Virus record (IMG/VR): IMGVR_UViG_3300034683_000619
Location: 1 to 56,277 of that record
Source: a virus
Lineage: Duplodnaviria > Caudoviricetes
Length of the DNA stretch: 56,277 nt
Strand: one strand, 5' to 3'
The notes under the pieces were generated by a model. That model had not been told where the DNA came from. It did not search any database and saw only the letters and a program-made list of their open reading frames with translations. Below, one piece after another: positions 5,840 through 55,865 of this stretch (within the stretch, counting starts at the first letter, position 1; each line of letters opens with the position of its first letter). The position numbers and the translations under genes were made by a program.

Positions 5840-6106
5840 TCACTTGCCTCCTATTTTTTCGACGATCCCGGCGAAAAGCGCGTAGGCCAGGGCACTCACG
5901 ACGATCCCGGCAAAAACGATTTGCCCTCGGTCCGCGGCTTTGCGCATGGCTTGCCCGAACATGAGGTCTTTCTGAAACTCCTTGACCTGCCTTGGGTCGT
6001 CGATGTCCACGCCAAGGATGGCGAAAACCTGCTTGACGGCCTCTTTCGCCGCAGTCTCCGAATATTTGCAGGTGTCCTCTTGCTGCGGTTTTGTGCACTC
6101 GCTCAT
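5840..6106 (-). CDS. Membrane protein with a C-terminal TM helix (lysis-associated, putative)
   Basis: LGVDIDDP..FQKDL.F pattern, then a hydrophobic helix; ATGA overlap with the holin. Confidence 0.7.
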   Translation of the reverse strand: MSECTKPQQEDTCKYSETAAKEAVKQVFAILGVDIDDPRQVKEFQKDLMFGQAMRKAADRGQIVFAGIVVSALAYALFAGIVEKIGGK

Positions 6107-6279
6107 TTCACACCATTACGGGATTTGACCCAGGCCTCGGTGGAGTAGGCCAGTGTCAACAGGCCGCCGATGATATAGGCTATGGCCTCGATGTGCTCCG
6201 GGCTGAGGTTGTACCCTAGCAGCGCCGCCAGTGGGGTAAGCGCCTTCATTGCCTTGGTGATTATTTCGATATTGGGCAT
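6103..6279 (-). CDS. Putative holin (58 aa)
   Basis: TAAGGAG RBS; two hydrophobic segments and a basic C-terminus; first gene of the operon. Confidence 0.65.
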   Translation of the reverse strand: MPNIEIITKAMKALTPLAALLGYNLSPEHIEAIAYIIGGLLTLAYSTEAWVKSRNGVK

Positions 6280-6371: not shown

Positions 6372-6440
6372 TGTCCCCGTGACAGGGAGGCAATCAGTTG
6401 CGGATAAATAAAATATGCTCTAATTTGCGTCGTAAATCAA
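6372..6440 (-). promoter_or_regulatory. Late promoter 2 plus conserved leader box
   Basis: TTGATT(6440-6435)-N17-CATATT(6417-6412); CTCCCT-N5-GGGGACA at 6389-6372, also present in the terS leader. Confidence 0.6.
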
Positions 6441-18400: not shown

Positions 18401-20803
18401 TTCAGCGCGTTGCCATTCGTCCAGCTGCTCGCGAATGATCTGCCCGGTCAATTCTTTCTGGGTTCGAGCTTCGGCAAACCGGCGAACCATGGCGTCAAGG
18501 CTTTCGTAGCCCATTTCGTTGGCGAAATCATCTGGTTGGACAGTCCCGACCAAGCTGAGAATTCCAGGGTATCGCCGGTTGATCATGCCGATGGTGTCAC
18601 TGTCGTATGCCTCCCGCATGGCTTCCAGATTGAGTTTGCCACGCTTCTTGGCCTCGGCCATGTGCTGATACACAGGATCCGTCTTGACGATTTCCTGCGC
18701 TTGGCGGCTTGCAGACTGCTTGACCTCATCAGGGATATTCTCATCCTTCATCGCGGCATCGGACGCTGCCTCTCTCTCCCTGAGCGCCTTGATCTGTGTC
18801 TGCCGCCTCTGCGCCGCTCTCTCGCGTTGCACACGCTGCTCGAACGCGGCGGCCTCACGCTCGGTGATATTGCCCTGCGACTTTGGAACAGTTCCAATAG
18901 CCTGGTAGGATTCATTGAAGCGGGCAATGTCCTTCTCTCTCTGGATTTCAGCCTTGGTCTTCTTCGGAGCCTGCGGTGGCGGAGTATTCCTGGCGAGATT
19001 GTAGGCAGCCGCGGCGGTTTCCTGTGCGTCCCATTCCGCCTGCATCTTCCTGTCTTCGATCTCCTTGACCGTTGCGGGCTGCGCCGACATCCACGCCTGG
19101 CGATTCTCCGGGGTGTTATCTTCGTCGTTGTATGCCCGCATGAAGGCCTGCACGGCCGGTGAGGGTTTGCCCTCCTCTTCAGTTTCCGGCCTCACCTGCT
19201 GGTTCTTCTGCTGGTTGTAGGCGGTCGCGTCTCTGCTTTGCCGTGCCCATTCACCCTCCATCCGGTTATCATCGGTGAGGAGTCCGGCTGTTCCGCGGAT
19301 AAGCTCGGTACGGGCATCGTACAGCGGCTCGTTGTACCGCTTCTCCCACGCATCGATTGCGTGCTGCATCGGGGATACAACATCTGCAGGGGATTCCTGC
19401 TGATCTGGCTCTGGCTGTTGCCGGGCCAGCGGTTGATTGCGCCGCTGGTTGTAGGTAAGGGCCTGATCTGTCTGGTTTGCCCACTCCTCGGCCATGCGCG
19501 GGTCGTCAACCGGTGGCGGGACCGCGGCAGTAGCTGTCCCGTACAGTCCAGACTTCCCGATCAGCATGTCAGCGGCTTTGCTCAGTGGGCCTTTTGGCGC
19601 GCCGCTCTCCGGTGTGGCTGCTGATGCCGCGTCCGGGGTATATGCCGCCATGTCTGCGACGTGCACGTCAAGGGGGACGGGTTGGCCTGCGCTGATGTAG
19701 GTCATGGCGGTATCAAGCCATGTTTGCGCTATCTGCCTGTCGGTGGACTGTGCCAACGATCCGGCGACCTGTTTGGCTGCGTCTGCCCGTTCCTCGGCGG
19801 ATCCATCATTCAGCGCTTTGTAGGCCTGGTTGCGCTGGTATGCGGCATGTCCGCCAAGGGTGACACCCATACCGGTGGAAAGAAAGATGGCCGGGATAAT
19901 GGATTCCCGCATTGCCTCACCGGTGGACATTGTCGAGATACCAGCTTCTTTGTCGGCCTCGTTCTGGAAATAGGAGGTCCCGACCTCAGAGCCCACCTCA
20001 AATGGCATATACTTGGCCAACGCCTTGGCCAATGTTTTTACAACGCCAGGGTTTACCAGTTCTTTGAGAATCGCTTTCCCGCCCTTATACAAAGCATTCC
20101 CACCCGGAAGCGTCCTGAAAAAGATTGCCGCCGCTATGTCTCCAGCCCCTTCGCCGCCAGCCTCGGCGAGTGCATGGGTCATAGCGTTCTTGTGAGCAAT
20201 CTGATCTATCTGTTCGCCGTCGAGGTCCGGACGGGTTTCAGCCAATCTCTTGGCAGCATCCTCCTTTTGTTTACCGTATGTCCCCAGACCGAACAGTCCG
20301 AGCATAGTCCCTGCCCCGCCGATAATTCCACCAGCCAGTGCTCCGGCAGCGGTGCCAACTACGGGGACAACTGACCCAAGAGCCCCTCCAGCTGTGGCGC
20401 CGGCAGCAGCACCGCCCCATACCGCTGCGGATTGCGGGGTGGATTCCATAGCCGTGTTCCAGCCGCGCTTGACAATCCCTTCTTCCCCTGCGGCTTCGGA
20501 CTGGTCAGGACGAAGGATAGCATGTTGTTTGGGAAGCTCTTCGGTGAGGTAGTTCGACGCCTTCTTGAGCGTCTCGCTTCCTCCTACCGCCGTATCCAGT
20601 GCATGGACAGCAGAGTCGGCCAGTTCAACACCACCTCTGGCAAGGTGGGATACGGTGTCGCCGAGAAATGAGCGCTCCGCGACGGGTGACTCGTTCTCTA
20701 TCTCGTCAAATATCGCACCAAGTCCGGACCGCTGCGGCTGCTTTGCTGTTAGGGTTGTGGTGGATTCGTTTTCGATCTCTGCGAAGATGTCGGACAGTGC
20801 CAT
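6476..20803 (-). CDS. Giant polyvalent virion protein (4775 aa): DarB-like N6-adenine MTase + SNF2 helicase, zincin-like peptidase, ART-PolyVal-like and LPD38-like domains
   Basis: LEPSVGVGNF (~15645) and GNPPF (~15450); HAVGAGKT (~13350); DEAH (~12840); QREGRIIRQG (~11660); HEMGEH (~10165); YHGS..GFFF..YLKVENP..GHDGVI..FEPNQVKS (~9340-9715); helical C-terminal domain. Confidence 0.9.
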   Translation of the reverse strand: MALSDIFAEIENESTTTLTAKQPQRSGLGAIFDEIENESPVAERSFLGDTVSHLARGGVELADSAVHALDTAVGGSETLKKASNYLTEELPKQHAILRPDQSEAAGEEGIVKRGWNTAMESTPQSAAVWGGAAAGATAGGALGSVVPVVGTAAGALAGGIIGGAGTMLGLFGLGTYGKQKEDAAKRLAETRPDLDGEQIDQIAHKNAMTHALAEAGGEGAGDIAAAIFFRTLPGGNALYKGGKAILKELVNPGVVKTLAKALAKYMPFEVGSEVGTSYFQNEADKEAGISTMSTGEAMRESIIPAIFLSTGMGVTLGGHAAYQRNQAYKALNDGSAEERADAAKQVAGSLAQSTDRQIAQTWLDTAMTYISAGQPVPLDVHVADMAAYTPDAASAATPESGAPKGPLSKAADMLIGKSGLYGTATAAVPPPVDDPRMAEEWANQTDQALTYNQRRNQPLARQQPEPDQQESPADVVSPMQHAIDAWEKRYNEPLYDARTELIRGTAGLLTDDNRMEGEWARQSRDATAYNQQKNQQVRPETEEEGKPSPAVQAFMRAYNDEDNTPENRQAWMSAQPATVKEIEDRKMQAEWDAQETAAAAYNLARNTPPPQAPKKTKAEIQREKDIARFNESYQAIGTVPKSQGNITEREAAAFEQRVQRERAAQRRQTQIKALREREAASDAAMKDENIPDEVKQSASRQAQEIVKTDPVYQHMAEAKKRGKLNLEAMREAYDSDTIGMINRRYPGILSLVGTVQPDDFANEMGYESLDAMVRRFAEARTQKELTGQIIREQLDEWQRAESEQGDYFDRMAERQEGARAWKGNTYATTRAGSVFPAPDEAVSGMEDLIRRRPESFTEEDLDHWTYTAEQRSRLRAAHREALSGLKTSYNNEDKQQSVSDVAINATNQAESLPRNLGATRPAEITGQTEAFLRNQQVRQTLSQNETNLVSPASDTSGFLRDQQIRRDAVGTEKAPLTRQPGESLGAFLQRRRAEREKEDQAKAQTTPEANLKADLPGAETATAPAQAEASLPARSQSIEQELAATSDEDLVAMLDDVFGEEEQPVQAKTPTKQRLTAKEKFASDIERKGAATDQAGKGFKIVSSPSDDGSFVLEVVDNNGNRNTIGRPYPPGFGFSRQEVISRAIEMAVFTKPKDNDTQQQGEQPRYIVREDQRTANVGDLVLMGSRLVRVTKIWRDESTDQWMLSVVNTHVRGKDRLWAQKPGKTDQQFTRSEFIRHTGVWPAMEATPRPQEEKKQGWQNVTVTGMSSELAFAKRYEQWVNDGMEGEGPPPPQFLDGAMLVNFVAKVHAAAIDKAQTGQPKAPANPEQQGDNDPTFIVHSLQTGQREEVKTSGLERTPKKTASQITKEGGIAALEGVKSAMEGLSQLFGGKNRLGSGLTFDEETYTQAKPHFVKAWNDAKQVGYSLKELIQYLHDQFGKAIRPYLQRFLADVKAGDLTVIEKASTINQVDKKQEQPRGGQDDNIGSAGAESDGQSLRQDGQAVEGAGDRPLVSVAAEVRSGSGQAEPPADRGTGRSGKGKRGNQGTHGVRVPASRGRRGRSPKIHPEPPGTASDSRNGGSGPLTDAPATIPAKNFVITDEVNLGQGGQVQKYRDNIEAIRTLKKLWSEQRRATPDEQRILARYVGWGGIPNAFRNAVTGEVKEDWQARVEELEGLLTAAELETARNSTQNAHYTSGTVVSAMWDALQHLGFKGGLTLEPSVGVGNFIGLVPQELSGSTKFVAAEFDGITAGIAQALYPQEGIFHTPFEKLPLPSGSFDLVIGNPPFGQTSLSFPHLPAINRHSIHNQFFLAGLEALKPGGIQAFVVSRYLMDSKDATVRKEIAKQAELLAAVRLPQSAFKGNALTDVVTDIIILRKPGYTQNAEGKTVREPLPAQPSWLDTVEVVDRMTGEPMTVNAHFAARADMIIGTMDRSGSMRREGDITVHYDGKDFRGDLSKALRTALPKGIMSTQSTTEVSGHRFKTMVDALEIALSGAEEGSISIDQQTGKLMMVREMKMTDSGSYILSRVELTPETPWSNKLTLQDDGTWTEEVDQVDGQGNKVKVGRLNAKEIKRYTDSEVPVHYRLGKLDHQRLTDAVKLLATLKKQILLETSPESVDRDIEANRKELKQQYDAFLKQHKYHLSSAPIARLLASMPDGALVLSLEEAYAKPISKQQAKKLGREPREASADLAAIMSRRVIFPYRAPEKTSDPQDALAITLSETGRVDLETIAELMGKDEQGVIAELHDNRDEPLIYRNPETGAWETADEYLGGNVAQKLNAASTEGLEKNIAALEKIQPEPWGADKVTVMPGATWVPESVYADFLTHLTGSRSTVRFGRASNTFSVYGDDSTGTAKQWNTPHRGVSLLFEALLNSKSIRVNTKDSDGNVTFDADATELAKAKVEEIKEEFSTWVFKDSERRKLLVDLFNKKFNVRVNRQRNGQHLQFPGKVPDQVISLRRHQKNGIWRGIVDRFVLYDHAVGAGKTFTGIARAIERRRMGLSRKPMIVVPNHLVEQFAADVYRLYPGARVLAASKKDLEKSKRRRLFARIATGDWDVVIVPHSSFAFIGIDPVTEARYLEAELETAEAAVREAEEQAIEDGFNGPRKPLTVKQAEALRDKIVERLRKLQDRASDKDRLLTFEQMGVDDLTVDEAHEFKNLFYSSNMQARGMNPRAGSAKAYDLWLKVRVLRETGGSVAFMTGTPISNSAVEMYGLMRYLAADELQDMGLDHFDAWRAQFVDATTEYEPTESGRGLKEVNRLGRDWSNMRALMDLYYSFADSVTNDDIKRWYREDKGRDFPIPRVRGGGRVSVNVQPTPAQENELQQIVAGFEALPDERDVTERNRKRLRLMDQARKVSLDVRAVNPRAQGEPGGKLDVAAQRVYDIYKQWEKDRGTQLVFLDRSVPKAQGDRKILAAYDALREKLAEAERAGDEAAEQRALDALEKYDTNEMEELRIAQAGGWNGYQHLKDSLVSMGIPANEIRFVQEANTDEQKQALFDEVNAGAVRVLIGSTPRMGAGTNVQERLVALHHIDVTWKPSDIEQREGRIIRQGNKLLQKYGLENFEVEILAYTTETTIDAKLWSLNATKLRMINGIRQYKGEFNMEFDDEDSVGMAEIAAIASGNPLQLERVKLDAEIKKLTRQQRAFDRQQWGVKDEADRLANIVETYPGLIAVHEELAPKVTTAIDQAERNAAQRSITIDGKVFGFDSLRQAGADNNPFRYVLEKYDEAKKDNGKFSVNIDGEETRSKQKAENLIDEKLGDALVFDMMVNGELVISRNAARRAIADLANQAMDGKPDDMGEVKVGTVIVNGIEFDLSVETETGRDRRGEPTKEVFFYFEAEVPREDGQAPFRINVTEKGTVIRVSNKVNLNSLDKLFTEVNRKTRNIPGNVQLLQESLDIAKRDLDPTRARASAEFSKADELKRMRERLVEVERELAGTESGQTTGAQLSVTTTVPTENRADIEAELRTSLGGIRTRRLLKPGRVVIIDSQEEMRGVIDSSKTASVKYSKSGSIQGAYVNGTAYLVRDGIEKGQTFPVLLHEMGEHAGRLGFTDDAEYQTILGSLKKRSKVNGIVGDAIRAAMARVPENTKPEHYWSEVAAYLVEDNANTKLSIVDRILSFFRKLLIKAGITSPDTLSHKDLVIFARAAVNAASGGNAAQSAMLSVREMFKSVDPNSPALKRFLGDSQITEPVYHGSPETFWTFDTNKVGQKTHSPGAGLGFFFAMDPNYSRGYAGIDGANRAFYLKVENPKRMQAHQLPNLRTVEEAKAHAKRLQLAGHDGVILEDEGHVVVFEPNQVKSAEINTGEFDADNPDVRYSVAGGLTGNGTGPAWQTPQDSKRDTFLYSVQDKLIDLKRIQDNIEQELGPISEEHDVRMAEELYHKRAAKRTEDMLISEVNPLMKELGEIQGGDLSEFEEYMHALHAPEANESLRLRNPNEEELAALKEQAKADRDRLQESAVVQRFIQKERELATAERDVETGDADDSLLLVVREELNRLREEPIIEQYVKARERHRKIRHAKPFLGDNTTLSGMSNEAAEQVLANLPVERRRQYQELAKKWQRFIAKTRATLVQYELEGREVVEAWAEAFEHYVPLHREDMDNGTGIGQGFSVKGSATRARTGSNRKVVDILAHIVMQREKAIVRGEKAAISKALYGLAAANPNPDVWTIETPPMVREFDPVTGLVISRPDPGYKNKPNAVVHRFVNENGHIEERAVLFNERSERGIRLAEALKNLDVEQLGTILRTSAMLTRWFSAVNTQYNLVFGPVNAIRDAGAALLNLTNTPLAGRQKQVAKRIATSIGPLFKAIWADAKGQPLNTEIGRAWREMQLEGGTTGFRDMFEDADARAKDLKRAMLSTAASKAADRFNWVKQQVSLYNDVMENASRLAVYMEARSQGLSRKRAASLAKNITLNFNRKGKVATQAGAMYAFFNAAVQGTEKLYRTLRGPAGKKILAGGLLLGASQAVLLAAAGFGDDEPKDFIKERSIIVPIGNKKYATIPMPLGFNVIPNLARVATEWALSGGERTGERVASILSSFAETFNPVGNAGFSVQTIAPTVIDPLIALSENKDWTGKNIALPNFNPLKPTPGHSRMKDTASAIGVGLSRALNFLTGGNEYTPGLLSPTPDQIDYLIGQALGGVGRESLKAMQTAGSAFTGEDLPTYKIPLVSRFYGDSADSSATSTAFYRNIKQLNMHAAEVEGLRENRGDVRQYMADNPEARLIGRAAVTYRRVQKLQKMRRDLLRKGGEKERVKHVEARIRSTMDSLNKMME
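16051..16359 (-). CDS. Nested out-of-frame gene, TnpV-like (102 aa)
   Basis: AGAGGGGGG RBS and own promoter; YG..HW..RP..L..L..A..EAEEVV..YI pattern; the host frame here is a low-complexity linker. Confidence 0.7.
   Translation of the reverse strand: MITSAAQARKAMGSPYGKTVKQLKELAIDHWYQWRPKFVRDLVKQNRLQTVALAAAEKASAEIRELMEYGYQLHEAEEVVLPKYILSPPEPQVIAEMEDPDR
16391..16432 (-). promoter_or_regulatory. Internal sigma-70 promoter with an overlapping inverted repeat
   Basis: TTGACC(16432-16427)-N17-TACAAT(16409-16404); ATCTAC-N10-GTAGAT at 16391-16412. Confidence 0.65.
17950..17998. repeat. Twin palindromes (GAGACAA-ggt-TTGTCTC, 22-bp period) flanked by CAGGTG/CACCTG
   Basis: caggtgagacaaggtttgtctcgttttgagacaaggtttgtcgcacctg. 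Confidence 0.8.
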
Positions 20804-20816
20804 ATCGAGAACCTTA

Positions 20817-22121
20817 TCAGTTGGGATATTGAGCTTTGAGTGCGTTATATACTTCCGGATCGCTGGCCTTGAGCTGCAGTAGGTATTCCTTCTGTGCGGC
20901 TGGATCAGATTCTAATGCCTCAAGTTCGTTGGCGTACTTCGGGTCAAGAGCCGGCCCCCTTTGCTTCAGATCGCCGGTCTGTTTGTTGTAGATGTCCTCG
21001 CCAATTTTCGTCCCCTGATCATCGTACTTGCCAATAGTGCCATATTGGGCTTCACGTTCAAACTTGCCGATCATGGCGCGGTACTTGGCCTCGTTCTCTG
21101 GCGTTGGATTCTGCATGTAAGCATCTCGGGCTGCTTGAAGAGTTTTCGCTTGTTCAATCTCCATCTGCCCCTTCTGCTGATTCAATGCCTCAGTCCCGAT
21201 ACGGGCCTCGTTTAAGGCCAAATCGCCGGTGAGACGCTGGCGGGCGAGTGAAGTTTCCTGTCCAGCCCTTTTGTCCTGAAGCTGCGCCCGGTAATTGGCC
21301 CCTTGCTCCTGATTTTTGCTATTCATCGCAGACGTTACTGCACGGACATAATCACCATACGCGGCAGCGTTTGCCCGATCCGCTTCTGCCCTTGACTTCC
21401 AACCGCTCCCACCAGTTGCCCTCGGTGGCGGCGCGATAAGCGGCATGGATGAACCCTGCGGTGGCTTGTAACTGAAACGTTCGTCATAAGGGTTGTTTTG
21501 ATCGAAGGGGTTGGCCTTTTGATAGTTTCTGGCTCGGTACTCGTTGTACTCAGGTGAATTATAGTCCACCTTGCCGACCGCTCCCAAGAACCGCTGTGCG
21601 GCATCAGCAGTCGGGCCGGCCAGTGCCTGCCGGGCAGTAGAGCCGCCCGGACGCACCGTCATCTTATAGTACCCGTCCTGCCCTTGGGTGCCCATAGTGT
21701 AGACCTTGCTCCCGTCCGCCATGGGCTGATAGCCGATACCGCTGGCAAGACGCGTCACCGGGTTAACTGGTGAGGTGTTCGGCGGGGCGACCGTCGGCTG
21801 CACTCGGTTGCGTGTCAGATTGGTTATGGCCGGATTTTCCAGTCCCGGCTTGCGCAGCATTCCAGGTCCGCTGGCAGCTGCCTGCTGTTGCGATGCTGCT
21901 GGCATTGATGCCGGCGTCCCTGCCAACTGCTGCCGCGCCTGAACGTTAGCGGGACTGGCGGTGCTCGTGGCGCCTGCTCCGGTTCTCAAACCACCTTCGC
22001 CAAACCACGGCTTAACCGGCTCCACCGGCCTCCCGGCCAAGGAATTCACCACATTGCGCGCATGGCCCCCGAGGTACTCGACAGCCCTTTTATTGAAATC
22101 GTCCTGGTTGTTTTGTGCCAT
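20817..22121 (-). CDS. Putative internal virion/DNA ejection protein (434 aa)
   Basis: Q/A/G-rich and partly coiled-coil; lies directly upstream of the giant protein, as in podoviruses. Confidence 0.7.
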   Translation of the reverse strand: MAQNNQDDFNKRAVEYLGGHARNVVNSLAGRPVEPVKPWFGEGGLRTGAGATSTASPANVQARQQLAGTPASMPAASQQQAAASGPGMLRKPGLENPAITNLTRNRVQPTVAPPNTSPVNPVTRLASGIGYQPMADGSKVYTMGTQGQDGYYKMTVRPGGSTARQALAGPTADAAQRFLGAVGKVDYNSPEYNEYRARNYQKANPFDQNNPYDERFSYKPPQGSSMPLIAPPPRATGGSGWKSRAEADRANAAAYGDYVRAVTSAMNSKNQEQGANYRAQLQDKRAGQETSLARQRLTGDLALNEARIGTEALNQQKGQMEIEQAKTLQAARDAYMQNPTPENEAKYRAMIGKFEREAQYGTIGKYDDQGTKIGEDIYNKQTGDLKQRGPALDPKYANELEALESDPAAQKEYLLQLKASDPEVYNALKAQYPN

Positions 22122-37739: not shown

Positions 37740-39290
37740 TTACGCCACCCCCACGCCTTGGGGACGCATCCCCCCATTCGGTCCAGAATACCGGGAGAGC
37801 CGGTCGCGCCAGGAAACTGCACGCTCAGGCTTTGGAATCAGGGCAGTCTCTCCCTTCAGGGCCACGGCACCGGTACGGAGAGCGTCCGCCCCATGGCTTG
37901 CCCAGTTGTGGAGAGGGGACCGGCGGAACGCGCCTAGCCTCTCGTCCCACTCGCGCCGGTAGTTGTCCAGGCAATCGACCAGCTTGGCGCACCTGGTTTC
38001 ATCGATCACGCAAGTGGAAAGGAACGATCGGGCCGCCTCGATGCCAGCAAGTACCGCCTCGATGTCGCGCGGCCTGGTCACAACCTCGATCGGTTTGATG
38101 CCCAACTCCTCGGCCTTCTCCTGTCGCCGTATGCCGGTGCCCAGTTCCCGGACGTTGGCATCGTGCGGCATGTAGTGCTTGCCGTAGGTGTAACCCCGCT
38201 TGTCCAACTCTCGGGCGTAGAACGCCAGGCCCTCGCCGGACGCCTCCAGGTAATCGATCAGCCGGTTCTGTGCGCCAATCCGCTGGCGAAAAATAATGGT
38301 CATGGAATCATCCATTCCGAGATCCCAAAGGGTGTCCACCGGGTAGCCATCGTCGTAGGGCACGGCGGTGATCCGGCCCTCCTTGCGGATGCGCTGCATC
38401 GCCCGGGCGTAGTAGGCACCCTCGATCGCGGCCTCGAACGCCTCTTCTGGCGTCCCGGGAAACTCTCGCTTCATGTCGTCACCCTGCTGCCGGGACTTTT
38501 TCGCGTACCATGCGCGGGCGTCCGGGTCGATCGGCTCGCCGACCTTGGCCTCTATCCCGTCCAGGTAATCGTGAAGCTCGGCCGGCACAGCCACGGCATG
38601 GGCCGGCAGCCGGTTCTCGGTCCCCATCCACCAGCCGAAAAAATGAAACCTGAAATCCAGCATGGTCAGGGGCGTGCCGGCATCGCGCAGGGCCTGCGCC
38701 TCCTGACACATATCGTAGAACGCGCCTTCCCTGCCCTCGGCAGTGCTCTCGACGATGATGATGTTCCCGGCCCCGACCGTATTGAATGCGCCGGTCCGAA
38801 TCTCCCTGGCCACCTCCGGCTTGCGGGCTGATATTTTGCCGTACTCACTGACATGCAGGATCTGCAGGGTACCACCGCGGTGGCTGGTGCTGACGTCCAC
38901 ACGCGAGCCATTGGCCCACTCCAGGGTCTCTTTAGCGTCAGTGACCAGCGGGACGGCGTCTTTGATCTGGCCTGGCAGGCCGTCGTAGGCGAATCGAATC
39001 TTGTCGAGCTTCTTTTTTGCGTCGGGGAGGGTGATGTCAATGACGCCGGCCTGGGTGTGCGGTGTCCACAGGCAGCTGTCGAGGATGAACATCGCGATAA
39101 GAGTGCTGAACCCGCGTTGCCGGTCCTTGAGAATCACGTTCAGCCACCACATCTCCGACCAAAACCTGGCCTGGGATTCGTTCATCTGGAACGGCACGAC
39201 CTGGCCGGCCTTGTTGGTGATCCGGTACAAGTTGTTCATGCGCCAGTCACGATCGGAGAGCAGATGCTTCAGTTCGGCCGGAGTGGTCAT
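37740..39290 (-). CDS. terL: Terminase large subunit
   Basis: KDRQRGFST (Walker A), LHVSE (Walker B), ESTAEG, WDLG..D, PHDA, SHGADA. Confidence 0.95.
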   Translation of the reverse strand: MTTPAELKHLLSDRDWRMNNLYRITNKAGQVVPFQMNESQARFWSEMWWLNVILKDRQRGFSTLIAMFILDSCLWTPHTQAGVIDITLPDAKKKLDKIRFAYDGLPGQIKDAVPLVTDAKETLEWANGSRVDVSTSHRGGTLQILHVSEYGKISARKPEVAREIRTGAFNTVGAGNIIIVESTAEGREGAFYDMCQEAQALRDAGTPLTMLDFRFHFFGWWMGTENRLPAHAVAVPAELHDYLDGIEAKVGEPIDPDARAWYAKKSRQQGDDMKREFPGTPEEAFEAAIEGAYYARAMQRIRKEGRITAVPYDDGYPVDTLWDLGMDDSMTIIFRQRIGAQNRLIDYLEASGEGLAFYARELDKRGYTYGKHYMPHDANVRELGTGIRRQEKAEELGIKPIEVVTRPRDIEAVLAGIEAARSFLSTCVIDETRCAKLVDCLDNYRREWDERLGAFRRSPLHNWASHGADALRTGAVALKGETALIPKPERAVSWRDRLSRYSGPNGGMRPQGVGVA

Positions 39291-39817
39291 GCCGTTTCGC
39301 CCTCGTCGCCAGGCAACGTGCGCTTGGAGTTGGCCTGGATTTCCGCGATGACCGCGGCTACTGCGTCGGCCGGGTTGCTCTGCTTATTGTCGCGCTCGAA
39401 AATCCCGAGGTGCCGGCCGATGTCGACCAGGGCGGCCCGCTTGTCGGCCAACTTGAATCGGACCTTGTCACCGTCGATGGTGATCTCCTGGATGGCCGCG
39501 GCCTGGTCCCGGGTGAGTTTCTGGATGTCCTGCAGGCTGAACCCATCCTGGAGGTAGTCCTGCATATTCGCGAATCCGATCTTAGCCAGTTCGGCAACCA
39601 CAGCGTCGGCGGTGACCAGTGTCCGTTTCTCCCGATTCGCCATGGCCTTTTCTATCTCGGCGACAACGTGAGTTTTTACGAGCAGTTGCGGACCTATCCA
39701 GCTAGCGGTCTTTGCGCTGTACCCGGCACGGATTGCGGCCTGGGTAGCGTTGAGATCAACAAGATATTCCGAGACAAATATCCGTTGCTTTGGGGTTAGA
39801 GTTCCGCCTCTTGCCAT
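39287..39817 (-). CDS. terS: Terminase small subunit
   Basis: LTPKQRIFVSEYLVDLNATQAAIRAGYS (Terminase_2 signature); start at 39817. Confidence 0.95.
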   Translation of the reverse strand: MARGGTLTPKQRIFVSEYLVDLNATQAAIRAGYSAKTASWIGPQLLVKTHVVAEIEKAMANREKRTLVTADAVVAELAKIGFANMQDYLQDGFSLQDIQKLTRDQAAAIQEITIDGDKVRFKLADKRAALVDIGRHLGIFERDNKQSNPADAVAAVIAEIQANSKRTLPGDEGETA

Positions 39818-39829
39818 TTTCAAAATCCC

Positions 39830-39893
39830 AAAAAAAAACCCCGACCGAACGCAGTACCAGAAATGATCTGGTGTTATCGCGTTTGGTCGGGGT
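39830..39893 (-). terminator. Branched intrinsic terminator/attenuator in the terS leader
   Basis: ACCCCGACCAAACGC...GCGTTCGGTCGGGGT, inner hairpin ACCAGA/TCTGGT, followed by a U-tract. Confidence 0.8.
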
Positions 39894-39900
39894 GATTTCA

Positions 39901-39968
39901 TGTCCCCAATGTAGGGAGTGAATCCAGTGCCGATGGTTTAATTTATCTGCACATGTCTACTATGTAAA
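39901..39968 (-). promoter_or_regulatory. Late promoter 1 plus conserved leader box
   Basis: TTTACA(39968-39963)-N17-TAAATT(39945-39940); CTCCCT-N5-GGGGACA at 39918-39901. Confidence 0.65.
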
Positions 39969-39987
39969 GTTAAATGTAAAAAAAACC

Positions 39988-40182
39988 TTACAAACCACTA
40001 TCTCTTTTTTTAGATCGCACCTTCAGGACCCTGGTATCCTTGACTGTTGGTGTCCGCACACCTCCATCAAGAAAACCTATTTCGATAATGAGCATGCCTG
40101 TGTGTTTCTGGGTGATGCTTTCCTTTGCCAGCTCCCTGGCGGTTTCCAGGGCTTCGTTCACCGCCAGCATCTCGTCGATCAT
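39988..40182 (-). CDS. Small basic protein, YezD/DUF2292-like fold (candidate late regulator)
   Basis: Helix followed by TGMLIIEIGFLDGGVR; GAGGG RBS; last early gene before the late promoter. Confidence 0.6.
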   Translation of the reverse strand: MIDEMLAVNEALETARELAKESITQKHTGMLIIEIGFLDGGVRTPTVKDTRVLKVRSKKRDSGL

Positions 40183-40379: not shown

Positions 40380-40398
40380 GGATCGGGTTAATTGCTTG

Positions 40399-40611
40399 TT
40401 AGCCTTCCGTAATTGCAGCATCGAGCAACTTTAAAAATTCCTCGAAACCATACGCCGCCTTGTAGTTCTCGCCGTCCCTTGTGGTGATGTGCAACGTATG
40501 ATTTACCCCGCAAGACACAGCCACCGAAACGATATGATCCACCCTCATGCAAATTGAATGCGTTTCGGTGTAAATCATTACGAATCCATGCGGTATTTTC
40601 GGTTCACTCAT
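40399..40611 (-). CDS. Hypothetical protein (70 aa)
   Basis: GGGAGG RBS; start MSEPK. Confidence 0.65.
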   Translation of the reverse strand: MSEPKIPHGFVMIYTETHSICMRVDHIVSVAVSCGVNHTLHITTRDGENYKAAYGFEEFLKLLDAAITEG

Positions 40612-41017
40612 TCGGTTTTCCCTCCCACTTATTACCTGCCACCTTGCAATGGCCAACGATGTCATATATCGCGCCCTCGTCGCCGTCTTTCTCAGTGCCC
40701 CATCCGGCCATCCAGTCTATCCAGCGCACCAGGAAAACATTGCTCTCCATCGTGTCAAAAAGGAAATCGTTCTCGTAGATGCGCGTCCCGTACATGTCGA
40801 GTAACCCGGTCCACTGGTCAATCTCGCATGTCACATATTCGGATGGTCCGCCTTCGTCCTCGAAATCAACGAACAGATCGAGAGCGAGGTTACCAAAATT
40901 ATCGACATAGAAATTGGCAGCAGACGGCAGATTCTGCATGTCGAGCATTTTGCCGGTCGCAGTACAAAACGCCCTGAATTTTATAATTCGACCTTCTTCA
41001 TAATGTTTCGACTTCAT
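40604..41017 (-). CDS. YopX family protein
   Basis: IKFRA..M..QWTGLLD..G..IYEND..V.GN.WE signature. Confidence 0.9.
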   Translation of the reverse strand: MKSKHYEEGRIIKFRAFCTATGKMLDMQNLPSAANFYVDNFGNLALDLFVDFEDEGGPSEYVTCEIDQWTGLLDMYGTRIYENDFLFDTMESNVFLVRWIDWMAGWGTEKDGDEGAIYDIVGHCKVAGNKWEGKPNE

Positions 41018-41035
41018 TTTCCCTCCAATAAAATC

Positions 41036-41095
41036 GACTAACAAGCGGGTCAAGCGGACGGCAAACAGCGCCGCCGCTTACCATTGGCGTTAAAA
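41036..41095 (+). other. Integron attC-like recombination site
   Basis: GACTAAC..GT(C)AAGCGG(A)CGGC-loop-GCCGCCGCTTAC..GTTAAAA; two unpaired bases in canonical positions. Confidence 0.7.
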
Positions 41096-46533: not shown

Positions 46534-46826
46534 GCTTCGCCCCCCTCTATTGTTACCGTACCGCCGTGGTGCCCGAAGGCACTATTCGCTTGATATTCCT
46601 TTGCTATTTCAAGAGCTTCCTCGAACGAACCGAACCCAGAGCTATATCTCCATTCGCCACCACGAAGCAGAAATTCGCCACTACGAAGCAGAAATTTGCC
46701 GTCTATGCAGGCGTACCACTTCCACCCGTCATTACCCTTGAGAGGTATGGCGCATGGGCCATCGAAAAACAGCGCTTCCACCCAATTTCTTGGGAAACCT
46801 TCAGGAGGTACAGGTTTATTCATCAC
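46530..46826 (-). CDS. Hypothetical protein with a 21-bp tandem repeat (FLLRxGE x2)
   Basis: ATGA overlaps; repeat at 46652-46696. Confidence 0.6.
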   Translation of the reverse strand: MMNKPVPPEGFPRNWVEALFFDGPCAIPLKGNDGWKWYACIDGKFLLRSGEFLLRGGEWRYSSGFGSFEEALEIAKEYQANSAFGHHGGTVTIEGGEA

Positions 46827-47035
46827 ACCACCTCCGGAGCCGGCAGCATCACCCGTGACGGATAACCAGCTTTGGCAAAGATCATTTCAGCAGACCGGAT
46901 CTTTGCGTTAAACTCCCGCCGCTTCCGTGCTCGCATAACGATCACACCAACCCTGACCTCCAGCTCCACGTCATCCAAGCTGAGTACGTCGCCTTTGTTC
47001 TTGCGCTCTGTTTTTTCCATCGTTATTATCTCCAT
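46823..47035 (-). CDS. Hypothetical protein (70 aa)
   Basis: Co-oriented ORF coupled to the next gene. Confidence 0.55.
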   Translation of the reverse strand: MEIITMEKTERKNKGDVLSLDDVELEVRVGVIVMRARKRREFNAKIRSAEMIFAKAGYPSRVMLPAPEVV

Positions 47036-47050
47036 GTCGTGTAGTTGTTT

Positions 47051-47090
47051 GCCCCCCTTCCTGTTGGCGCAGGGAGAGGGGCGTTTTTTT
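47051..47090 (+). terminator. Intrinsic terminator facing antisense to the early operon
   Basis: GCCCCCCTTCCTG..CAGGGAGAGGGGC followed by T7 on the + strand. Confidence 0.55.
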
Positions 47091-48259: not shown

Positions 48260-48601
48260 TCATCCTCCCATTTGTCGTTGATAATGCTCCTGCTGGCGCA
48301 CGTTTATGTATCCTCGCCCTTTAAAATATTGGGGTTTGTACTCCTGGCGCTGCCCGCGCCGCTGCCTTTGCTTTGGCCCCCACGAAGAGCTTCGCCGGTG
48401 ATTGCGGTTGAAATAGGCCGTTACCACATCCCGCCCATCAACAATCACGATCAACCCCTCCAGCGAATACCGCCTGATACCGCCGCGCTCGATCGTCATC
48501 TCCCCGGACACCACCACAGCCTCGACCGTTGCCCGACTGATGTCACGCTCCGCCATCCGCTCAAAAGCATGGGTTGTGTATTTCAGGTCAGAGGGACTCA
48601 T
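48260..48601 (-). CDS. DUF4258-like (RelE-fold) protein
   Basis: YTTHAFERMAERDIS..VVTAY; TAATG coupling. Confidence 0.75.
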   Translation of the reverse strand: MSPSDLKYTTHAFERMAERDISRATVEAVVVSGEMTIERGGIRRYSLEGLIVIVDGRDVVTAYFNRNHRRSSSWGPKQRQRRGQRQEYKPQYFKGRGYINVRQQEHYQRQMGG

Positions 48602-49146
48602 TACCGGCACCCCAAAAGCGACCGCTCATAGGCCGTGGGTTGGTATTCAACGTCGTCGATGTTGCGCGGGACCGCTGGCCTGGGCGGCTCATTGTAATTT
48701 CCCTGATGCCGACGAAGCGGTTGTCGCTGCATAGCCGCGAGCTCTTCCCGTGTGATCTCCTCCATGCCGCGAAGCTTCTTGGCGCTCAATGAGCTTGCCG
48801 GCACGTCGAACATCCGAGCAAGATCGGCGGCACGGTAAAGCTCATTGTCCGGCATCAGCCGGATTTTAAAGACTGTCCGCTTGACCGGCTGGGCGACAGG
48901 CTCCTTGGGACGATTCTTGAACCGGGTGTCTCCTGCAGGGGCAAGCAGTTCGGCGGGTATCACGTCAGGGCTCCCCGCCATCCGCCAACGCTTTGAAAAC
49001 GTTTCCTGGTTTATCCTGTGCTCGATAGCTACCCGCTTTAGCCCGCAGAGCTCTCTTGACCCGTCGGGCCGGTCCACCCACACCAGGACTTTGGCATTGG
49101 TGTCATTTTGACTGATCAGTGCCGGGTCAACGTCTTTCCGCATCAT
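48601..49146 (-). CDS. Hypothetical DNA-binding-like protein
   Basis: GGGAGG RBS before MMRKD; HTH-like segments; the upstream extension in the ORF track is probably not real. Confidence 0.6.
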   Translation of the reverse strand: MMRKDVDPALISQNDTNAKVLVWVDRPDGSRELCGLKRVAIEHRINQETFSKRWRMAGSPDVIPAELLAPAGDTRFKNRPKEPVAQPVKRTVFKIRLMPDNELYRAADLARMFDVPASSLSAKKLRGMEEITREELAAMQRQPLRRHQGNYNEPPRPAVPRNIDDVEYQPTAYERSLLGCR

Positions 49147-49480: not shown

Positions 49481-49795
49481 TCAATATTCAACTCGTGACT
49501 GCAAAGCCTGCCGCGCCAATGTCGGGTATTCGGCAGCCCATTCCTTCCAGGCAAATTCAAAGTCTTCCTGGTCCTCGTAGTGGCCCGGCATCGGCTCGTG
49601 TGTGCTGATTCCAGAACCGTTTTCCGGGCACCAGGCATTCTGTGCGTTCACCAGGTCGTTAAAGGTGTTGAACCCGGTCAGCTCGACCGTCAACTCATTC
49701 AGCGCGTCGAACCTTGCCTTGAACTCATCTCTGCCTAGGTTGATCTCGATGCTTGTCATGGTAGCCTCGTGGTTGGTGGTATTCTGTGTGGTCAC
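49481..49795 (-). CDS. Hypothetical early protein (104 aa)
   Basis: GTGA overlap with the cro stop. Confidence 0.65.
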   Translation of the reverse strand: MTTQNTTNHEATMTSIEINLGRDEFKARFDALNELTVELTGFNTFNDLVNAQNAWCPENGSGISTHEPMPGHYEDQEDFEFAWKEWAAEYPTLARQALQSRVEY

Positions 49796-50043
49796 TTCTT
49801 CGCTTCTCGCTTGCCTGGCAAACGGCCACGTTTGAAGTTTATCCGACCATAAACCCGCTCAAGTTCACGCCGGATCTCTTCCGGTTTTCCAAAAAGCCAT
49901 ATTCGAATGCCGATACCAGTTATGTGTTCGACTCTTGCAGCTTTTGATGCGGTAAGTCGTTTTTTTCCCTTGAGCATTTTGCTGAAAAGCGCCGGGTCTA
50001 TTCCAAGTCTTTCTGATAACGATTTCTGCGTTGTGATCTTCAT
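49792..50043 (-). CDS. cro: Cro-like HTH regulator
   Basis: TQKSLSERLGIDPALFSKMLKGKKR HTH; divergent from cI. Confidence 0.85.
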   Translation of the reverse strand: MKITTQKSLSERLGIDPALFSKMLKGKKRLTASKAARVEHITGIGIRIWLFGKPEEIRRELERVYGRINFKRGRLPGKREAKK

Positions 50044-50151
50044 GACCACTTAATTATCGTCTAATAGACACCATGTCAAACAGAAAATGGTCTTAAAAAC
50101 TATTTTAATTTCTCGGAATCGCCGTATAATGTTGTCAAGGAGACAATAAAT
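50044..50151. promoter_or_regulatory. Lysis/lysogeny switch region
   Basis: TTGACA on the minus strand (50079-50074); TATAAT on the plus strand (50125-50130); GTC-N5-GAC operator-like palindromes at 50059-50069 and 50133-50145, with a degenerate copy at ~50090-50100. Confidence 0.65.
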
Positions 50152-50901
50152 ATGGGAATAGAGCCGATAAACGAGGTATTTGGGGCGGCCTTTTCGTTCG
50201 CGCTAAAAGGAAGCAAGAGGGGCACGCAGGCGAGAATTGCTACTGAAACTGGCGTGGACCCGGCAAACGTAAGCGCCATGAAACGGTGCGGTAAAGGGGC
50301 TTCTGAGGAGGTGAGAAGGCTTATCTTTTCAAAAATTTTAGAACTTCTCCCCGACTTCCCGGCCAAGACGTACGATGATTTCCTCCACATTGGCCGGTGG
50401 ATCCTGGACGGGCATGACCCGGAGCAGTGGAAGCCACCATTGCGCGACCAGCTTGCCCCGACCATGGCAAACGTACCGGCCAAAATCTCCCCCAACATCT
50501 CCCCCGGTCCGCCGGTGCTGAGCAAGATCCCGATTATCTCATGGGTGCGGGCTGGGGATTGGGCAGAAGTGGTTGACCCGTATCAACCCGGGTATGCAGA
50601 GGAGTGGATTGACACCACCGCCACCAGACACCCAAATGCCTTTGCCCTGGTGGTCCGGGGTGATTCCATGGCGCCTGAATTCATCGAAGGGGAAATCATA
50701 ACCGTCGACCCTGGGCGGGAAGCGGTTAACGGCAGCTATGTCGTTGCCAAGAATGGAGACGAGGCCACATTCAAACAGTTGGTGTTCGACGGACCGAACG
50801 TCTTTCTGAAGCCGCTGAACAAACGTTACCCGATCCGGGATATGACCGGGATCAACTTCCGCATCATCGGCGTGGTGGTGGAAAAGGTGAAGAGGTATTG
50901 A
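50152..50901 (+). CDS. cI: CI-like repressor (HTH + S24 peptidase)
   Basis: N-terminal HTH; VRAG cleavage site; GDSM and ATFK catalytic dyad. Confidence 0.95.
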   Translation: MGIEPINEVFGAAFSFALKGSKRGTQARIATETGVDPANVSAMKRCGKGASEEVRRLIFSKILELLPDFPAKTYDDFLHIGRWILDGHDPEQWKPPLRDQLAPTMANVPAKISPNISPGPPVLSKIPIISWVRAGDWAEVVDPYQPGYAEEWIDTTATRHPNAFALVVRGDSMAPEFIEGEIITVDPGREAVNGSYVVAKNGDEATFKQLVFDGPNVFLKPLNKRYPIRDMTGINFRIIGVVVEKVKRY

Positions 50902-53135: not shown

Positions 53136-53849
53136 ATGCTCAAGATCATTGAAAAAATACACACGAAATGGCTGACAATTGTTTTGTCATTCATTCTTTT
53201 CCCTGCACTTTCCTATGCCTGGTCAGGGAAAGTCGTCAACGTGGCCGACGGCGATACAATCACTGTCCGCCCTGAAAACGGTCCCCAAATAAAAGTCAGG
53301 CTGTATGGTATCGATTGCCCGGAAAAGGCCCAACCATATGGCCAAAAGGCGCGGGATTTCACAGCATCAATGGTCGCAGGAAAATTCGTTGATGTCGAAG
53401 TGAAAGCCACCGATCGATACAAACGAACCGTTGGTTTGGTGTCTATCAATGGCGTCAACCTCAATGAATCGATCGTCAAGAATGGCTACGCCTGGGTTTA
53501 TCGGCAATACTGCAAAGAAAGCTTTTGCATGGACTGGAGCAAATTGGAGTCAGTCGCCAGACAACAGAACAATGGCATGTGGGCAGATCCGCATATTATT
53601 CCACCCTGGGACTGGCGGCACTCAGGTGGAAAAAAGCAAGTTTCCGGGGCATCATACTCAGGGAAAACCGGTAACGACCAGACTCAACAAAATGACGCAG
53701 CCGGGGTGTATCATGGAAATGTGAACAGCCACAAGTTCCACCGGCTTGGATGCAAGCATTATAACTGCAAGAACTGCACAGCCACCTTTGGATCAAAAGA
53801 GGATGCCGTGGCGGCCGGGTACTCGCCGTGCGGGATATGTAGGCCGTGA
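53136..53849 (+). CDS. Secreted thermonuclease (SNase) with an Ada-like Zn-binding C-terminus
   Basis: Signal peptide; DGDT, RLYGIDCPE, DRYKR, GYAW; FH..GC..GYSPCGICRP. Confidence 0.92.
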   Translation: MLKIIEKIHTKWLTIVLSFILFPALSYAWSGKVVNVADGDTITVRPENGPQIKVRLYGIDCPEKAQPYGQKARDFTASMVAGKFVDVEVKATDRYKRTVGLVSINGVNLNESIVKNGYAWVYRQYCKESFCMDWSKLESVARQQNNGMWADPHIIPPWDWRHSGGKKQVSGASYSGKTGNDQTQQNDAAGVYHGNVNSHKFHRLGCKHYNCKNCTATFGSKEDAVAAGYSPCGICRP

Positions 53850-54015
53850 ACTGAGGCTACGATAATCGAGAACACACCCGATAAATATGGACTTGTTCAT
53901 TTTTTGGCCGGCTCGTTCGATGAATGATTATTGGAACAAGATAATATTCAAACTAGAATATCATGCGTTCAAGCCGCATATGTATGGGTTAGCGTAACAC
54001 GGAAACCAAGGTACA

Positions 54016-54891
54016 ATGATGAGATATAGAAAAATAACGCCACCAAACACAATAAATCTTGATGATTCAATAATCATGGAAGGCGATGCCCTGCACGCCA
54101 TCAGATTACTTCCATCTAACTCCATCCAGTGTGTAGTTACTTCCCCTCCCTATTGGGGGCTGCGTGACTATGGAATCGATGGCCAAATCGGACTTGAAGG
54201 CACCTTGCCGCAGTTTATCAATCATTTAGTTGCGATTTTTAACGAAATAAAACGAGTTCTTCGTGACGATGGTACTCTGTGGGTAAACATCGGTGATGGT
54301 TACACAAGCGGCAACCGGGGGTATCGTGCAACTGATAAAAAAAATCCAGCTCGCGCAATGGCAGTCAGGCCGGACACGCCAGAAGGTATGAAACCAAAGG
54401 ATCTGCAAGGGATACCGTGGAGGTTGGCATTTGCCCTTCAAGATGACGGATGGTATCTCAGGAGTGACATTGTTTGGCACAAACCAAATGCCATGCCGGA
54501 GAGCGTAAAAGATCGACCAACACGGGCGCATGAATACCTATTCATGCTTACAAAATCAGAGCGGTATTTCTACGATTATGAGGCCGTAAAGGAGCCTGGT
54601 TTGAATGGTAAGCTAAGGAATCGCAGGAGCGTATGGGATGTTAATACGCAGCCATTTGCGGAGGCGCATTTCGCAACTTTCCCCCAAAAACTTATTGAAC
54701 CTTGTATTCTCGCATCCACAAGACCAGGGGATTATGTGCTTGACCCATTCTTTGGGTCTGGAACAGTTGGAATTGTCTGCGCAGAACAACAAAGATTATA
54801 TGTTGGAGTAGAGCTTAATCCTGAATATGTGGCCATTTCAGCGAAGAGGCTAAATGCCGCGAAAGACATAATTATCAAGGTGGCTGCGTAA
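54016..54891 (+). CDS. N4-cytosine DNA methyltransferase, beta class (XcyI/Cfr9I-like)
   Basis: TSPPYW motif IV precedes DPFFGSGT motif I; coupled to the REase gene. Confidence 0.92.
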   Translation: MMRYRKITPPNTINLDDSIIMEGDALHAIRLLPSNSIQCVVTSPPYWGLRDYGIDGQIGLEGTLPQFINHLVAIFNEIKRVLRDDGTLWVNIGDGYTSGNRGYRATDKKNPARAMAVRPDTPEGMKPKDLQGIPWRLAFALQDDGWYLRSDIVWHKPNAMPESVKDRPTRAHEYLFMLTKSERYFYDYEAVKEPGLNGKLRNRRSVWDVNTQPFAEAHFATFPQKLIEPCILASTRPGDYVLDPFFGSGTVGIVCAEQQRLYVGVELNPEYVAISAKRLNAAKDIIIKVAA

Positions 54892-55865
54892 TGCCAAGCA
54901 TCAATATCCCAATTCCAGAGCTTCAAATAGATTTCTCTTTTGCTCTTGGCCAGATTCGCAGCCTTTACTTGCAGGATGCTCTTTATAAAACGGTCGAGGA
55001 CATCGATCTTGCAGAACTAGATAGGGAGCTTTCGGCCTATGTTCCACAGGTTGGCTTGAAGACTTTGGCTAAACATGGGTTGCGTGGTGAATTGGTATTT
55101 CCGGTTCCTTGTTTGCTTAAAGCTAATCCCTACCTGCTTGGGTATTACAGGCTTTTGCTTGGATTTAGCCAGAAGGAATTTTATACCACCAAATTTGGTG
55201 TATCTGGTTTTAAATCGATGGAAGTAAAGGGCATCCTTACCAAAAAGAACTATAACGCATTACCTGATCTTTGCCGGGGATTGATTGGAAGTGCTATTGC
55301 CCTTGTCGATGGTGTTGGCATTGACAGAGTTAGCAAAGATATTCTTGACGATTTGACGTTGCTAACGGTTGGTCCACAGTTGCGCGGTGGTGCCAATGTT
55401 AAGAAAGGGGTTGCTGGTATTGTTGATGTGTTCCAAGCAATTCACGACATTATTGAACATGCAGCAACCTCTTCAAGTGCAAGCAAGATAGAAATAGAGA
55501 ACGCAGCCGGTCGAAGAGTCCTGATTGAGTTTGCCCCTGACCCAGACATTGTCATCCGTGAAGAGTTTAGTAAGGGGAAGCATCGCAATATTATTGCTAT
55601 CGAGGTTAAAGGGGGAACCGACTTCTCAAATATTCATAACCGAGTCGGGGAAGCTGAAAAGAGCCATCAAAAAGCACGAGCAGCCGGGTATGTGGAATGC
55701 TGGACTGTGGTAAATGTAGATCGTATCGATATGGATATGGCGCGAAGAGAATCACCATCAACAAACACATTTTATCGGTTATCTGCACTGAAGCTGGCTG
55801 ATGGCGACGAATACCAAGACTTCAAAGATCGAGTAATTTCGCTGACGGGAATACGCAATGGCTAA
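54891..55865 (+). CDS. Type II restriction endonuclease, XcyI-like (family recognises CCCGGG)
   Basis: YYRLLLG.SQKEFY, F..DPD, IAIEVKGG.D.SNIHNR.GEAEKSH.KA; TAATG coupling. Confidence 0.8.
   Translation: MPSINIPIPELQIDFSFALGQIRSLYLQDALYKTVEDIDLAELDRELSAYVPQVGLKTLAKHGLRGELVFPVPCLLKANPYLLGYYRLLLGFSQKEFYTTKFGVSGFKSMEVKGILTKKNYNALPDLCRGLIGSAIALVDGVGIDRVSKDILDDLTLLTVGPQLRGGANVKKGVAGIVDVFQAIHDIIEHAATSSSASKIEIENAAGRRVLIEFAPDPDIVIREEFSKGKHRNIIAIEVKGGTDFSNIHNRVGEAEKSHQKARAAGYVECWTVVNVDRIDMDMARRESPSTNTFYRLSALKLADGDEYQDFKDRVISLTGIRNG

Follow-up and report, generated by a model that had tools for sequence, protein, structure and literature searches.

A leader pair with a covarying stem suggests an undescribed late-gene switch in a temperate GP4/SU10-like podophage

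Genes and features at the locus

The DNA analysed here (termed the window) is a provirus record of IMG/VR with a length of 56,277 bp, and its phage genes are on the minus strand. The genome is that of a temperate GP4/SU10-like podophage, and the nearest named phages have TerL sequences that are less than 50% identical. Positions of the main features are shown in Table 1. The leftward early operon displays the gene order RusA, RecT, metallo-beta-lactamase-fold protein, DnaT-like replication protein, SSB, YopX and an 88-aa open reading frame, followed by a spacer of 216 nt and a 64-aa open reading frame. The 64-aa gene ends 20 nt before the −35 hexamer of a promoter (late promoter 1), which is followed by a short leader and the late genes.

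Table 1. Positions of genes, leader elements and predicted RNA structures in the window.
Feature	Positions	Strand	Remarks
Late block 2, 58-aa holin-like open reading frame	6103–6279	−	opens late block 2; ATG at 6279; weak PHROG match
Intrinsic terminator 2	6362–6297	−	57-nt hairpin 6362–6306 and 9 U 6305–6297; directly after the 4775-aa gene
Predicted antiterminator stem, leader 2	6404–6356	−	with A6405 as 1: P1 2–5/47–50, P2 9–11/42–44, P3 13–14/39–40 and 15–16/35–36, P4 18–23/27–32
Box copy 2	6405–6372	−	match to the consensus
Late promoter 2, putative	6408–6440	−	two registers, TTGATT-18-ATATTT or TTTACG-17-TTTTAT; read from the sequence and the leader alignment
4775-aa giant open reading frame	6476–20803	−	stop codon at 6476; last gene of late block 1
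terS	39287–39817	−	Terminase_2, E = 2.9e-39; first gene of late block 1; ATG at 39817
Intrinsic terminator 1	39892–39830	−	54-nt hairpin 39892–39839 and 9 U 39838–39830
Predicted antiterminator stem, leader 1	39933–39887	−	with A39934 as 1: P1 2–5/45–48, P2 9–11/40–42, P3 13–16/35–38, P4 18–23/27–32
Box copy 1, 34 nt	39934–39901	−	ATCGGCACTGGATTCACTCCCTACATTGGGGACA; transcript nt about +1 to +34
Late promoter 1, putative	39968–39940	−	TTTACA-17 nt-TAAATT, sigma70-type; −35 39968–39963, −10 39945–39940
64-aa open reading frame	39988–40182	−	last early leftward gene; AGAGGGA ribosome-binding site; candidate trans-factor
Cro-like HTH gene	49792–50049	−	opposite the S24 repressor
S24 repressor	50152–50901	+	faces the Cro-like HTH gene

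Late block 1 begins with terS and continues with terL (matching the terL PHROGs), a P22-type portal gene (P22_portal, E = 7e-92) and capsid and SU10-type adaptor genes; it ends with an open reading frame of 4775 aa. The late block length is 33 kb. An NPPF methyltransferase motif and SNF2-like helicase motifs are seen by eye in the 4775-aa sequence, and going by these motifs the protein presumably resembles the “polyvalent” injected proteins.

Late block 2 opens with a 58-aa open reading frame, for which “holin” is a label that we infer from size and position. This block also carries tail/fibre-like genes, an HNH/NUMOD4 gene and an M15 peptidase. The initial annotation had named an “HNH-sigma fusion” as a possible late regulator. 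The N-terminus of this protein is of the NUMOD4/HNH type, and its C-terminal 140 aa display neither a Pfam match at E <= 0.1 nor a sigma domain; the name is not retained here.

Other features of the genome can be mentioned. In the early operon, positions 48260–48610 (minus strand) encode a protein with a DUF4258 (toxin-like) domain and a long basic tail. A strong hairpin followed by T7 at positions 47045–47090 (plus strand, −23.9 kcal/mol) lies in antisense orientation to the early operon, between the open reading frames of 85 and 70 aa. No gene precedes it on the plus strand, and an antisense RNA may end here. The record has, at its right end (positions 53136–55865, plus strand), genes for a staphylococcal-nuclease-like protein, an N6/N4 DNA methylase and an XcyI-type restriction endonuclease.

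The 88-aa and YopX genes (positions 40394–41053) are found with high identity in contigs from runs of other studies, e.g. record 26 of run X8, which shows 4 differences over positions 40394–40825. These contigs diverge past ~40394–40406, i.e. at the stop codon of the 88-aa gene, which points to a mosaic module boundary there. Contig cover is absent over bins 39934–40176 in runs X4, X8 and X15 and is present over 39772–39933 in X4 (this concerns contigs only and is not counted as evidence).

The two leaders

The promoter, box, hairpin and run of nine U that had been reported before terS are all present on the minus strand. The terminator, previously described as branched, is instead one long hairpin with internal loops. 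Late promoter 1 was read from the sequence and is also listed by a promoter scan; as the scan overall is at chance level, this promoter is assigned from its position. Late promoter 2 is absent from the scan list. Its −10 hexamer and start are ambiguous, and of the two registers only TTGATT-18-ATATTT puts the RNA start at the box.

The initial annotation had also pointed to a box common to this leader and the one before the holin-like gene, and this is borne out. The box consensus matches exactly two sites in the window, both with 0 mismatches where up to 3 were allowed, and has no match in 100 dinucleotide shuffles. Folding of leaders 1 and 2, compared with shuffled sequences, gives z values of −5.1 and −4.3. 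A scan of T-runs preceded by hairpins yields just these two sites with a hairpin and T9 in the window.

The distance between the T-run and the ATG of the following gene is 12 nt for terS and 17 nt for the 58-aa open reading frame. These distances leave no space for a promoter, and thus transcription of both late blocks has to pass through a strong terminator. Since the late blocks can be reached only through terminators, some control of read-through is required, as had been proposed for both late operons.

An AUG at position 39901, located 2 nt past the P4 hairpin of leader 1 (Table 1), is in frame with terS through the terminator and would give a 28-aa N-terminal extension. A leader peptide starting at this AUG was considered and rejected, as the AUG is absent from copy 2.

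A predicted antiterminator stem

The two boxes differ at 11 of 34 positions. All 5 positions of the n5 loop segment of the consensus are among those that differ, and the chance of this is 0.0017 for 11 random changes among 34. The sequence used for folding began at the presumed leader start and included the initial 12 nt of the terminator arm, i.e. the RNA present before the 3′ arm. Independent minimum free energy folds show the same extended stem (P1–P4) in both copies. The box forms the 5′ half and the tip of this long imperfect stem of ~47 nt, whose single apical hairpin closes on a loop of 3 nt. The terminator itself supplies the 3′ strand of P1, namely nt 3–6 of its 5′ arm in copy 1 and nt 4–7 in copy 2. 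The 3′ segment of copy 2 is equivalent in position to that of copy 1 but differs in sequence, with the 5′ positions as in copy 1.

All 17 pairs are canonical in both copies. Six of these show double compensatory changes (G-C/C-G, U-A/C-G, G-C/U-A, C-G/G-C, A-U/C-G and A-U/G-C), one shows a single-sided change, and ten are unchanged. When the partners are slid by 1–3 nt, just 2–6 of 11 pairs are kept. Every one of the 11 variable box positions is either unpaired or compensated. In both copies, the 3′ segment is paired with the same nine 5′ positions, which was not reached in any of 2000 shuffles of the segment (mean 1.9). The fold energy of the stem is not exceptional; the fraction of shuffles at least as good is 0.10 and 0.21 for the two copies. 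With just two copies of the box, a single paralogous pair carries all of the covariation. The retention of G-U pairs speaks for an RNA rather than a DNA operator.

Forcing P1–P3 removes the bottom 6–7 pairs of the terminator beside the U-tract, at a cost of +13.4 kcal/mol in leader 1 and +12.6 kcal/mol in leader 2. It should be noted that P1 requires an RNA start at or before box nt 2, and that one reading of promoter 2 starts at nt 5. The cassette of promoter, stem and terminator is present twice in this genome, and its stem covaries.

Searches for further copies and for known regulators

The 17-base box pattern gave no matches in IMG/VR scans. The 5′ half of the box yielded 52 matches and the hairpin half 53, which is at chance level, and none of them has the layout of a hairpin plus terminator. 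One IMG/VR contig of 2.4 kb (L165) is identical to copy 1 at 20 of the first 21 box bases, 10 nt after TTATAAT; no hairpin or terminator follows, and with 52 pattern matches overall this match is compatible with chance. No site with 5 or fewer mismatches out of 23 was found in 1.58 Mb of related loci, and blastn gave no match in 50,697 phage records. Rfam searches of the whole window showed no match at or above the gathering threshold, and only sub-threshold ones on the terminators.

The absence of a recognisable Q-like regulator, noted earlier, is upheld in the records of the window phage and three relatives described below. A six-frame HMM search of these four records with three Q families (Phage_antitermQ, Antiterm and Phage_antiter_Q) gave nothing above cut-off, and the sole match (15.9 bits) is inside terS of relative G002. 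In the same four records, CAT_RBD (PF03123) has no match at E <= 1, and neither a PRD protein nor an ANTAR domain (PF03861) was found. An early open reading frame of 70 aa (positions 46823–47035, minus strand) has an arginine-rich segment, RARKRRE, reminiscent of N-type arginine-rich motifs; it matches no family and is an alternative candidate for an RNA-binding factor. A description of promoter/hairpin/terminator cassettes in phage late control was not found in the open-access literature.

Leaders in related phages

A hairpin with a T-run of at least 7 before terS is found in 3 of 80 TerL-related viral loci. The relatives' records are termed G001 (59.5 kb), G002 (58 kb) and G003 (13 kb, TerL 90% identical), and the phage of the window is G000. 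G001 and G002 share with the window phage TerL, the portal, some structural genes and the giant gene (homologues of 4360 and 4730 aa). There are three cassettes in G001 and two in G002. One cassette in each is directly after the giant gene, as in the window, so that the sites in the relatives match those in the window, i.e. before terS and right after the giant gene. In addition, G001 has a bidirectional terminator (A7-hairpin-T7) right after the portal gene, at positions 21283–21330 (about 6876–6923 of locus L015), with no counterpart in the window.

All eight leaders display a promoter-like site, a small hairpin, an A/U-rich spacer, a large hairpin and 7–9 U. Pairing of a 5′ leader segment with nt ~4–7 of the terminator arm is found in six of the eight, and the second and third leaders of G001 show no clear P1. 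Cognate arms pair with a mean of −4.85 kcal/mol, compared with −3.27 kcal/mol for swapped arms (permutation p = 0.008); the tests of single leaders in the relatives are weak (0.03–0.72).

When the 28 leader pairs were compared, only the pair from the window phage was significantly alike (z = 4.7). The other four same-phage pairs, from G001 and G002, have z values of −1.1 to 1.5, which are not significant. A motif ACTGR, seen in several leaders across the phages, was dropped, as leader similarity is non-significant outside the window phage. Neither the leaders within G001 nor those within G002 are significantly alike in sequence, and thus a sequence-specific factor would not be general to the group. 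The architecture is conserved across the group and the shared sequence box is particular to the window phage.

The 64-aa protein

The 64-aa open reading frame is preceded by a good ribosome-binding site, and 1.84 billion representatives include three relatives of its product (55%–58% identity, 19 invariant columns); it is therefore a real gene. All three relatives are on contigs of 2.3 kb or less. The initial annotation had described the product as a basic protein with a helix and a beta-hairpin that resembles YezD/DUF2292. The topology agrees with an AF2 model of low confidence (pLDDT 66), in which a helix is predicted at aa positions 2–24 and strands at 31–37 and 47–55, but the overall basic character of the protein is weak (pI 8.1, net charge +1), its N-terminal half being acidic and its C-terminal half basic. 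The resemblance to YezD/DUF2292 did not hold: none of the four proteins (the 64-aa protein and its three relatives) matches such a profile at E <= 10, by Pfam or NCBIfam.

The protein has no Pfam, PHROG or NCBIfam match and displays no known RNA-binding motif or nucleic-acid-binding signature. Foldseek gave best E-values of 3.8 (PDB) and 1.9 (BFVD), i.e. no fold match. A top score of 0.81 in the Atlas (DUF6894) is at chance level, and a PDB profile match to LRP4 (E = 5e-5) was judged spurious. The word-index search returned only the protein itself, and homologues were found neither in the viral-contig scan nor by tblastn of phage records at E <= 10. Two loci from a metagenome scan proved to be translated tRNA genes.

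In G001, a 70-aa open reading frame has a stop codon that overlaps the −35 hexamer of the terS leader promoter. It is predicted to have a helix at aa positions 11–24 and strands at 31–39 and 45–53 (pLDDT 68), an order which is the same as that in the 64-aa protein. Sequence similarity between the two is not significant (blastp E = 0.006 over 22 aa; hhalign probability 1.5%; no HMM match). The last early open reading frame of G002 (79 aa) resembles the 64-aa protein by eye only, and a minus-strand cassette separates it from the terS leader. Both the 70-aa and the 79-aa proteins are orphans. G002 and G003 have no same-strand small open reading frame directly before the terS leader; in G003 the genes upstream of the leader are divergent.

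The ties between the 64-aa protein and the box are thus two: its position, and the G001 70-aa protein of like topology in a like spot. By position it is the leading candidate for a trigger, which is a tentative and rather doubtful assignment.

Proposed mechanism and alternatives

The overlap between the box stem and the terminator arm fits a local RNA-level antiterminator (RAT/BglG-like) better than a Q-type loading site. The logic of a local stem also explains why each terminator has its own box at a fixed distance. We infer that termination is prevented by the stem, which a phage protein would stabilise. In the proposed process, the sigma70-type promoter would fire and produce a leader of ~105 nt that ends at the strong intrinsic terminator abutting the first late gene. 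P1 of the antiterminator stem would borrow nt 3–6 (copy 1) or 4–7 (copy 2) of the terminator 5′ arm. If the stem is held, the terminator hairpin would lose its bottom 6–7 pairs and RNA polymerase would continue into terS or the holin block. The terminator fold alone wins by ~13 kcal/mol, and a trans-acting factor must therefore bind and stabilise the stem. This factor would be made late in the early programme. Its most plausible contacts would be the P4 arms, which are invariant, and the unpaired bases that do not vary, among them C6, A7, A12, C17, C33 and A34. The logic would be that of BglG/LicT-RAT, with local action and one site for each terminator.

That each late block is gated in this way by a factor-dependent attenuator, in which the leader stem competes with the terminator and a phage trans-factor stabilises the stem, is a proposal for which we consider the chances about even. 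A wider proposal sees in the 64-aa protein the founding member of a new class of RNA-binding phage antiterminators of very small size, which would clamp a ~47-nt stem at every late-operon terminator, each phage having its own fast-evolving protein/leader pair; this we regard as unlikely, though worth stating. Overall, the leader pair suggests an undescribed late-gene switch whose protein trigger is possibly the 64-aa protein.

The layout can also be read as processive antitermination of the Q/AlpA, N-nut or put kind, where the box, as DNA or nascent RNA, would load a factor onto the polymerase, which then ignores terminators generally. A constitutive-looking promoter, a promoter-proximal terminator and an upstream gene slot of regulator size make up the lambdoid PR′-tR′-Q layout, and the box start at about +1 and the 33-kb late block are in accordance with this. 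It is nevertheless improbable, as no Q-family protein is encoded, the hairpin loop is variable (unlike boxB), and the covariation extends into the terminator arm; moreover, a factor loaded at leader 1 needs no second box with a fixed spacing to terminator 2. The promoter spacers are identical at 8 of 17 positions and the box has no shared ANNNT hexamer, as judged by eye with presumed start sites. Both terminators are, on the other hand, also at the 3′ end of an upstream operon (after the 64-aa gene and after the giant gene), where ordinary leaky terminators or insulators might be found, the common box then being a remnant of duplication. This is the least probable of the explanations considered. 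The order is promoter, terminator, ATG, with no promoter space after the terminator; the likeness of the leaders ends exactly at the terminator, with differences confined to loops (including all 5 n5 positions, at the chance of 0.0017 given above) and compensated pairs; and the cassette positions are kept in three relatives.

A further explanation is that the leaders themselves are the product, i.e. small RNAs of ~105 nt in the lysogen with the box as seed or body, and that late read-through depends on a site-independent factor of the Xp10 p7 kind, perhaps the small protein. Hfq-binding small RNAs have a 3′ end with a small hairpin, an A/U-rich single strand, a terminator hairpin and a U-run, and all eight leaders show this order with 7–9 U. 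A terminated-leader small RNA is found in Stx phages, where the PR′-tR′ RNA is StxS. The lack of a common box in the G001 and G002 leaders would also fit a factor that needs no specific site. We consider this quite improbable, since no target was found within the phage (the best duplex, at the start of the portal gene, does not exceed chance for copy 2), no solved antiterminator matches the 64-aa protein in sequence, and the covariation of variable box positions with the terminator arm is left unexplained. The fold order of p7 (beta-sheet then helix; PMC6624301) is also opposite to the predicted helix-then-hairpin. Lastly, the stem may be real but owe its stability to a host protein, a metabolite or a kinetic effect, with the 64-aa open reading frame an unrelated accessory gene. 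The support for the stem is independent of any protein, G002 and G003 have the cassette without an adjacent same-strand small open reading frame, and the 64-aa protein is without a nucleic-acid-binding signature. However, phage late timing normally needs a phage-made signal, the leaders show no Rfam family or riboswitch-like match, and the stem has no obvious ligand pocket; this explanation thus appears very improbable.

The textbook case of late-gene timing in temperate phages is lambda Q; to our knowledge, such timing is not known for most environmental podophages. Repeated cassettes of promoter, antiterminator stem and terminator, without a known antiterminator protein and in four related phages, represent a concrete design that is open to mutational tests. 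With the 64-aa protein as the trigger, few known sequence-specific antiterminators would be as small, and the system would provide a compact, orthogonal protein-RNA switch. Should the protein be unrelated, the leader stem with its covariation is still an uncatalogued cis-regulatory RNA. Should the proposed new class be real, GP4/SU10-like temperate podophages would have a late switch that is Q-less, local and multi-site.

Comparison with known systems

The BglG/SacY/LicT-RAT systems display the closest logic. There, as here, an imperfect antiterminator stem overlaps the first bases of the terminator 5′ arm, it is stabilised from outside, and there is one site for each terminator. The stem described here is longer than RAT (~47 nt), no CAT_RBD or PRD protein is present in the four records, and the genes controlled are phage late genes rather than sugar operons. 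The only Rfam contact is a sub-threshold match of the bglG element on the terminator part (24 bits, with a cut-off of 80). In size, the CAT RNA-binding domain alone is ~55 aa. The RNA target of ANTAR proteins is a dual hairpin with hexaloops, and the leader structure, with its one apical hairpin and 3-nt loop, lacks such dual hexaloop hairpins.

HK022 put and lambda nut are likewise paralogous cis RNA elements at the start of two phage transcripts, upstream of terminators. The put element consists of two stem-loops and is factor-independent, and nut depends on the conserved boxB loop. In contrast, the leaders of the window have a single stem with a variable loop that reaches into the terminator itself, and have no Rfam match.

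Xp10 p7 is similar to the 64-aa protein in size, being a phage protein of ~7 kDa that suppresses intrinsic termination. According to PMC6624301, p7 needs no RNA or DNA site, has an N-terminal beta-sheet and a C-terminal helix, and is an example of a 7-kDa protein that blocks terminator hairpins. The 64-aa and 70-aa proteins differ in that they are predicted (by low-confidence models) to have a helix followed by a hairpin, and they have no sequence similarity to p7.

The lambdoid Q system (PR′-tR′) shares the regulator slot at the end of the early operon, followed by a promoter, a short terminated leader and the late genes. PMC6606751 and PMC9371919 describe this layout as a promoter with a promoter-proximal terminator and the regulator gene upstream. 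According to the same papers, Q and AlpA are HTH proteins with an all-helical fold and a length of at least about 140 aa; known QBE/ABE sites are located in the −35 to −10 interval, and a −10-like pause element follows shortly downstream. BrrG is presented as a Q analogue in bioRxiv 10.1101/2024.11.20.624540. In the window, by contrast, the conserved element is transcribed (+1 to +34) rather than located between −35 and −10, no shared −10-like pause element is seen by eye, and where the lambdoid genome has a single cassette, the genomes of this group have two to three.
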